Assembly: GCF_003334255.1 (NCBI RefSeq)
Contig: NZ_QOWU01000004.1
Length of the DNA: 64,000 nucleotides
From: Escherichia coli
Lineage (GTDB): Bacteria; Pseudomonadota; Gammaproteobacteria; Enterobacterales; Enterobacteriaceae
Direction: 5' to 3' (one strand)
Shown: in pieces, positions 8,050-8,928 of the stretch
Layout of the letters: every line of letters begins with the position of its first letter
Position numbering within the stretch: position 1 is the stretch's first letter
Made by a program: the position numbers and the translations under genes
The notes under the pieces: generated by a model
Databases searched by the model: none
Told to the model about the DNA's origin: nothing
The model's input: only the letters and a program-made list of their open reading frames with translations

Positions 8050-8928
8050 ATGAGCAAAAAGCAGAGTTCCACCCCACACGATGCGCTGTTCAAACTCTTT
8101 TTACGCCAACCGGACACGGCTCGTGATTTTCTTGCGTTTCATTTACCGGCACCCATTCACGCGCTTTGTGATATGAAAACCCTCAAGCTGGAGTCGAGCA
8201 GCTTTATTGATGACGATCTGCGTGAAAGCTATTCCGATGTGCTGTGGTCGGTGAAAACGGAACAAGGACCAGGATACATCTATTGTCTGATTGAACATCA
8301 AAGCACCTCAAACAAACTGATCGCATTTCGCATGATGCGTTACGCTATTGCCGCAATGCAAAATCACCTTGATGCTGGATACAAAACGTTGCCGATGGTG
8401 GTGCCATTGTTGTTTTACCACGGTATTGAAAGCCCCTATCCCTATTCGCTGTGTTGGCTGGATTGTTTCGCCGATCCCAAACTGGCAAGGCAGCTTTATG
8501 CCTCCGCATTTCCGCTGATTGATGTCACCGTCATGCCTGATGATGAAATCATGCAGCACCGACGTATGGCGCTGCTGGAGTTAATTCAAAAACATATTCG
8601 TCAACGCGACCTGATGGGGCTGGTAGAGCAAATGGCCTGCTTATTAAGTAGTGGATACGCTAATGACAGACAAATCAAAGGGCTGTTTAATTACATACTG
8701 CAAACTGGCGACGCTGTACGTTTTAACGATTTTATCGACGGCGTTGCCGAACGTTCACCGAAACACAAGGAGAGTTTAATGACTATTGCGGAAAGATTGC
8801 GGCAGGAGGGGGAACAATCCAAAGCCCTGCATATAGCCAAAATAATGCTTGAATCCGGAGTTCCTCTTGCAGACATCATGCGCTTTACCGGGCTGTCAGA
8901 AGAAGAGTTGGCTGCGGCGAGTCAGTAA
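8050..8928 (+). CDS. rpnA: Recombination-promoting nuclease RpnA/YhgA (292 aa), transposase-like PD-(D/E)XK family
   Basis: [36 protein letters not shown]...; recognised as YhgA. Confidence 0.9.

Follow-up and report, generated by a model that had tools for sequence, protein, structure and literature searches.

The gene rpnA (yhgA, b3411) is annotated as a recombination-promoting nuclease and falls in a Pfam family named Transposase_31, and its locus raises the question of what the gene encodes and what native role its products serve. We analyzed a 64,000-nucleotide stretch of the Escherichia coli contig NZ_QOWU01000004.1 (assembly GCF_003334255.1), hereafter called the window, in which the open-reading-frame listing places the rpnA coding sequence, an ATG-to-TAA open reading frame (ORF) of 292 aa (RpnA-L), at 8050-8928 on the plus strand; all rpnA features given below lie on that strand. 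A preliminary description, made from the letters of the window alone, missed an internal translation start that gives a second, smaller product, RpnA-S, and hence the current view that this locus forms an intragenic toxin-antitoxin module from a defence-associated family. We consider it likely that the locus is a single-gene toxin-antitoxin module, with one gene lying within another, whose native role would be in defence. The overlapping internal gene is the biologically interesting part of rpnA.

The internal gene, rpnA-S, is the in-frame ORF M244-Q292 (49 aa; 8779-8928). Its ATG at 8779 is preceded, 6 nt upstream, by the Shine-Dalgarno (SD) motif AAGGAG, which occupies codons K240-E241 (8767-8772). 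Among the 23 in-frame ATG, GTG, and TTG codons of rpnA, just two, M1 and M244, follow a 6-nt match to the SD consensus, that of M1 lying in the region AGGTGAAGGA (8035-8044). The RNA around the internal SD was no more structured than shuffled sequences (z = +1.1), and the SD was unpaired in the minimum free energy fold. We scored conservation on 86 diverse homologues (down to ~30% identity) and on 35 close homologues (64-92% identity). M244 was conserved in 76/86 of the diverse set, compared with a mean column identity of 32%, and positions 240-241, three and four codons 5' of M244, were occupied in these homologues by purine-rich codons for [K/E/G/R]-[E/G/D]. A sequence search of the PDB returned a single entry, 7TH0 "RpnA-S," which is identical to aa 244-292 at 49/49 residues, and the precomputed Pfam label of the rpnA-S product is PF27070 HTH_Rpn_C.

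Everything essential on rpnA is already in print for exactly this sequence. The 879-bp rpnA DNA is 100% identical to that of E. coli K-12 MG1655; the gene is the same as the K-12 RpnA (RpnA-L/RpnA-S) studied previously (Zhong et al. 2023, PNAS, PMC10400941; Kingston 2017, PMC5350276), without any difference, and the window carries the reference allele. Experiments by others on this exact sequence have shown the internal start, the toxicity of the long protein alone, its inhibition by the short one, the complex of the two, and the structure of RpnA-S. The small protein RpnA-S is produced from the K-12 sequence, and the combined substitutions K240R, E241D, and M244L abolish it (Zhong et al. 2023, PMC10400941). 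RpnA-L without RpnA-S inhibited growth and strongly cleaved DNA, and RpnA-S blocked SOS induction and DNA cleavage in a paralogue-specific manner, as measured by growth, an SOS reporter, and pUC19 cleavage (PMC10400941). By size exclusion chromatography with multiangle light scattering (SEC-MALS), RpnA-L and RpnA-S form a complex of ~74 kDa, a mass that agrees with L2S2, and this complex comes apart at pH 9-10. The structure of RpnA-S is that of a dimeric three-helix bundle (PMC10400941; PDB 7TH0). The same paper reports an internal transcription start site found by differential RNA sequencing (dRNA-seq), which gives a shorter and more abundant transcript (PMC10400941).

The long product is assigned to the Rpn family at full length. 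It matched NCBIfam NF007361, the RpnA equivalog, over aa 1-292/292 with 694.8 bits (cutoff, 583), and the Rpn subfamily model TIGR01784 with 160.9 bits (cutoff, 52.1), while Pfam PF04754 (Transposase_31 / YhgA-like) covered aa 8-209 (8071-8676; model positions 1-202/203; E = 2e-91). In line with the cited papers, we take PF04754 to be a member of the PD-(D/E)XK clan. The preliminary description had named the gene rpnA/yhgA and placed it in the Rpn / Transposase_31 / PD-(D/E)XK family; the name is borne out by the equivalog match, the identity to MG1655, and the RefSeq annotation "rpnA: recombination-promoting nuclease RpnA," whose coordinates coincide with those of the ORF, and the family by the three profile matches.

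We then located the residues known from mutagenesis. The codon of D11, a catalytic or essential residue conserved in 82/86 homologues, is at 8080-8082, and a D11A mutant lost every phenotype (Kingston 2017, PMC5350276). D63 (8236-8238; 84/86), the "D" of the PD motif, lies at the start of strand beta-2, and D63A is inactive both in vivo and in vitro (PMC5350276). The E-x-Q variant of the (D/E)XK motif is formed by E82-H83-Q84 (8293-8301; 83/86, 82/86, and 73/86, respectively) at the end of strand beta-3, with the glutamine at the position where lysine is usual in (D/E)XK being a signature of the Rpn family; both E82A and Q84K caused a loss of activity (PMC5350276). The R94A substitution abolished recombination but not toxicity, and D165A is hyperactive (PMC5350276). 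Residue 165 falls in the translated motif PDDEI (aa 163-167; 8536-8550), in a non-core part of the PF04754 domain, where D164 is conserved in 82/86 homologues. D11, D63, E82, Q84, and R94 are all present, and they are invariant in the 35 close homologues and 85-98% conserved in the 86 diverse ones.

An AlphaFold (AF2) model built on the 86-sequence alignment reached a mean predicted local distance difference test score (pLDDT) of 92 and replaced a model from the 35 close homologues (pLDDT, 57). It contains a helix at residues 9-37, strands at 40-47, 62-70, and 73-84, a helix at 91-108, and a strand at 116-125. According to this model, RpnA-L residues ~9-125 are predicted to form the alpha-beta-beta-beta-alpha-beta core of PD-(D/E)XK nucleases, with D63 and E82/Q84 at the canonical positions. 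The C-terminal part of the model superimposed on 7TH0 with a root mean square deviation of 0.5 Å and a template modeling (TM) score of 0.91. Fold searches against solved structures gave only weak PD-(D/E)XK matches and found no solved Rpn nuclease domain, the PDB copy searched containing RpnA-S alone. Biochemically, RpnA-L is a Mg2+-dependent, Ca2+-stimulated DNA endonuclease that cuts with little regard to sequence and generates 3'-OH ends (PMC5350276).

An intragenic toxin-antitoxin is the mechanism with the best support. Translation from the ATG at 8050 produces RpnA-L, whose N-terminal PD-(D/E)XK domain (D11, D63, E82-x-Q84) cuts DNA to 3'-OH ends. The internal SD and the ATG at 8779, reportedly carried on the shorter transcript, produce RpnA-S, the three-helix C-terminal domain of RpnA-L made separately and in excess, which dimerises and joins RpnA-L in an L2S2 complex in which cleavage is blocked. 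Alkaline pH dissociates this complex. Infection might in turn release the nuclease, and we infer for RpnA a native role in defence against phages or other foreign DNA. The antitoxin of a classical type II system is a separate gene, whereas that of RpnA is the toxin's own C-terminal domain, made from an internal start, so toxin and antitoxin necessarily co-evolve. In a further departure from classical type II systems, the Rpn antitoxin is apparently released and not degraded (PMC10400941). Rpn genes are a textbook case of one ORF coding for a toxin plus its antitoxin. PD-(D/E)XK nucleases with a role in defence, for example restriction endonucleases, Shedu SduA, and Cap4, are also among the systems with which RpnA can be compared.

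Rpn genes are also a textbook case of misleading Pfam "transposase" labels. We evaluated whether rpnA could encode a transposase or be what is left of an insertion sequence ("ISNCY family," "putative transposase"), domesticated or mobile, as might be suggested by the Pfam name Transposase_31, by the label "transposase" of PHROG 3300, by the ISNCY transposase names that homologues bear in some database entries, and by a patchy species distribution together with a GC content below that of the neighbouring genes. Between 7000 and 10000, only short imperfect inverted repeats were found, with their arms inside neighbouring genes. When the left flank (7848-8080) was compared with the right flank (8869-9020) and with shuffles, the best inverted match was 12 nt with one mismatch, its arms falling in the feoC terminator and in the rpnA coding sequence, and 8.5% of shuffles were as good; the best direct repeat was 8 nt, equalled or bettered by 54% of shuffles. 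The flanks therefore show neither terminal inverted repeats nor target-site duplications above chance, in agreement with the preliminary description. In 5425/5426 complete E. coli genomes the gene was found at this feoC-bioH locus, with a median of one place per genome, and tblastn detected no paralogue elsewhere in the window. NF007418, "ISNCY family transposase," scored 415.2 bits, below its cutoff of 583, and the fold is that of a PD-(D/E)XK nuclease, not DDE/RNase H. Others have likewise found rpn regions to lack inverted terminal repeats and target duplications and to have variable ends, and they saw no autonomous transposition (Zhong et al. 2023, PMC10400941). In their account, an autonomous transposase of this fold is not known, and a role as a transposase is highly unlikely (PMC10400941). 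We give almost no credence to rpnA being a transposase or an insertion-sequence remnant. The earlier statement that rpnA is not a mobile element is supported by the flank tests and by the fixed single site, and its epithet "domesticated transposase," which had no basis other than the Pfam name, is not supported, given the published analysis and the subthreshold ISNCY score.

The part of the protein that varies most among relatives is the antitoxin. The lengths of the 120 best homologues step by 4 aa (292/296/300/304/308/312/316/320). Comparison of homologues traced these steps to [L/Q/K/E]xxG-like units, present in 0 to ~7 copies, that are inserted in the C termini after "RLRQEG"; the corresponding site of variable 4-aa (12-nt) repeats in the window is at 8809-8832, in helix 1 of RpnS (~aa 254-261), and the K-12 allele is minimal. 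The insertion has been placed at H261 (PMC10400941). RpnB, RpnC, RpnD, and RpnE of E. coli and the Rpn proteins of Citrobacter and Salmonella share with RpnA 60-70% identity, the catalytic residues, and the internal start M-T-I-A-[ED]-R-L, and they differ from the minimal K-12 RpnA by 1-7 extra 4-aa repeats in RpnS. Some paralogues also have a second, stand-alone gene downstream, RpnSs, and RpnS proteins are specific for their own RpnL (PMC10400941). The plasmid-borne RpnP2-LS of E. coli ECOR13 has the common architecture, a PD-(D/E)XK RpnL whose gene contains the internal start of the RpnS antitoxin; it makes more L relative to S than RpnA does and is the only Rpn system with a demonstrated anti-phage activity, a protection that covers T-even phages when the pH is alkaline or the temperature low (PMC10400941).

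In order to describe the variation of rpnA within E. coli, we defined allele classes from an evenly spaced sampling of the 5426 complete genomes. Class (a), the intact K-12-type gene, was the majority (about 41/60 sampled rows). Class (b), which carries a divergent RpnS cassette, made up ~1/6 of the sampled rows and includes E2348/69 and avian pathogenic E. coli (APEC) strains. Its protein is 297 aa long, with 4 additional aa in the repeat region and one more residue C-terminally; the alternative cassette contains …FQKGIRTNALNIAKTML… and the protein ends with …EGFQKGIRTNALNIAKTMLDAGVSLEDVLRFTSLTVEDLAEINHQ. The rpnA-bioH spacer is ~220 bp in class (b) (locus L002, 1844-2062; locus L005, 1835-2053) versus 28 bp in the window. 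A short RpnS-like ORF (MTDAEREYLISYLIGYLLDRRLEALDIAKRML), which has an SD of its own and is terminated by a change of GAA to TAA, lies in this spacer, and after the ORF comes a K-12-type RpnS 3' end, equivalent to 8822-8928 of the window. The class (b) spacer amounts to a downstream RpnSs copy, of the type described for rpnC and rpnE (PMC10400941), in degenerate form.

Such exchanges of the RpnS cassette and partial duplications at rpnA's 3' end are possibly self-inflicted, an idea raised in PMC10400941, and they bear on the original "recombination-promoting nuclease" proposal, in which the primary native function of RpnA would be RecA-independent recombination and gene acquisition, with RpnS as a mere dosage regulator. 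Overexpression of RpnA-D gave more RecA-independent recombinants in conjugal crosses, catalytic mutants were without effect, and the 3'-OH ends left by the nuclease can prime a polymerase (PMC5350276). However, rhamnose-driven overexpression was the only condition that gave the phenotype, and toxicity did not correlate with recombination (PMC5350276); moreover, native RpnA-L is undetectable while its inhibitor is abundant, and the related RpnP2 system protects against phage (PMC10400941). We regard a primary function in recombination as unlikely, and DNA breakage in overexpressing cells most likely accounts, as a side effect, for the rise in RecA-independent recombination. The preliminary description had stated that genes of this kind can raise local recombination and horizontal gene transfer; this holds for recombination upon overexpression of RpnA (PMC5350276) but is not a demonstrated native function. 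That description was accurate on identity and non-mobility, and it leaned on the older view of a "transposase-like recombination nuclease."

Class (c) comprises internal deletions, found in ~14-15% of complete genomes, that span ~8086-8330 (locus L003) or ~8127-8565 (locus L004). Both remove D63, E82, and Q84 and leave the internal SD, M244, and the RpnS ORF intact. The deletions are probably lineage-bound (clone D i14 and sequence type 131 [ST131]), reflecting about two events, and are weak evidence of selection. We considered the orphan-RpnS alleles as a sign of selection to keep the antitoxin and found this unsupported, as there are only two lineage-tied deletion classes. The full-length ORF is intact in ~85% of the 5426 genomes, with 95-100% identity.

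The site is variable across Enterobacteriaceae. In Citrobacter koseri, the feoC-bioH interval is empty, with 83 bp that include REP-like (repetitive extragenic palindromic) sequence (locus L006, 5772-5854). In Citrobacter rodentium, the interval harbours an rpn gene in the same orientation (locus L007, 5813-6754), which encodes a protein of 313 aa with 66% identity and six extra repeats; the resulting 24-aa gap in RpnA falls at the repeat site in helix 1 of RpnS. Enterobacter soli has a YdgH/BhsA-like gene at this place (locus L008, 5881-6156). In the window, the GC content of rpnA is 47.6%, against 55-56% for feoB, feoC, bioH, and gntX (5278-7847 and 8957-10448). The variable site, the allele classes, and the low GC content fit a horizontally acquired and rapidly diversifying gene, not a core housekeeping gene, and the comparative results as a whole are consistent with the published picture.

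The deletions are also what one might expect of a selfish or decaying addiction module without benefit to the host, kept since loss of the antitoxin is harmful as long as the toxin is intact. Two lineage-specific core deletions with an intact RpnS ORF, in ~15% of complete genomes, including ST131, would agree with such a module, as would the failure to detect RpnA-L natively (PMC10400941) and the absence of a defence-island context. Against it, most genomes retain the full-length ORF with its catalytic residues conserved, C. rodentium has an rpn gene at the same site, and the hypervariability of RpnS suggests diversifying selection. We therefore judge a purely selfish module to be very unlikely.

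Several observations weigh against the preferred reading of a toxin-antitoxin module with a native role in defence. Rpn is a family linked to phage defence in which protection has been demonstrated for the plasmid paralogue RpnP2 only, and an anti-phage phenotype has been reported for RpnP2, with which the published assays were made, and none for RpnA (PMC10400941). Under native expression, RpnA-L was not detected and RpnA-S was abundant (PMC10400941). A strict scan for an internal sigma-70 promoter in rpnA gave no match, and a relaxed scan gave weak candidates only. The core deletions in ~15% of complete genomes imply that the nuclease is dispensable. The genes around rpnA (feo, bioH, and gntX) have housekeeping functions and do not form a defence island. 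Finally, no model of PADLOC 2.0 (2023 library) matched RpnA, which says little either way. Our search of the literature from 2023 to 2026 found no later work altering the picture of RpnA, and the questions raised here do not go beyond those of Zhong et al. 2023 (PMC10400941).

We also considered whether chromosomal RpnA may function as an abortive-infection nuclease that phages trigger, the E. coli allele classes perhaps recording an ongoing arms race. An orphan RpnA-S, as in ST131, would then be retained because it confers immunity to incoming rpnA alleles or has a regulatory role. The deletions resemble two clonal events and RpnA has no known phage phenotype, both of which count against an arms race, and we find this scenario doubtful.

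Phage genomes were searched for stand-alone mimics of RpnS. Among 50,697 phage records, tblastn found RpnS-like sequence only within or directly downstream of full-length rpn genes, and the matching records were either temperate phages, few in number, or bacterial contigs that carried a wrong label. RpnA-S matches the small families PHROG 5416 and PHROG 12274, but as tblastn gave no stand-alone copies, we dropped the idea of a phage-borne RpnS acting as an anti-defence protein. The temperate Leptospira phage vB_LalZ_80412-LE1 (H67) carries a full-length rpn gene (37132-38061) and, immediately downstream, a separate RpnS-like coding stretch (38092-38247), in an RpnL + RpnSs arrangement.

The surroundings of rpnA in the window are those of several E. 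coli chromosomes, to which segment 7600-9400 is 100% identical. The RefSeq gene order is envZ-ompR-greB-yhgF-feoA-feoB-feoC-rpnA-(bioH)-gntX-nfuA-gntT. The preliminary description had put rpnA next to the feo operon, and indeed feoA, feoB, and feoC occupy 5046-7847 immediately upstream, with a feoC-rpnA spacer of 202 bp. A terminator scan combined with folding identified an intrinsic terminator of the feoABC operon at 7869-7905 on the plus strand, with a hairpin and U-run (about 7869-7903) of -28.9 kcal/mol (z = -3.7; as stable in 0/200 shuffles). This strong terminator between feoC and rpnA implies that rpnA is a separate transcription unit. On the other side, rpnA meets the convergent gene bioH, which extends from 8957 onward in the window's numbering, after a gap of 28 bp (8929-8956) from one stop codon to the other; the terminator scan found no terminator-like hairpin in this spacer, and rpnA-bioH has been named as an "excludon" pair with transcriptional overlap (PMC12288877). 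An Rfam scan of the whole window at the gathering threshold returned no family at the rpnA locus, and its sole match was the small RNA RyhB (RF00057, 83 bits) at 45807-45871 on the minus strand.
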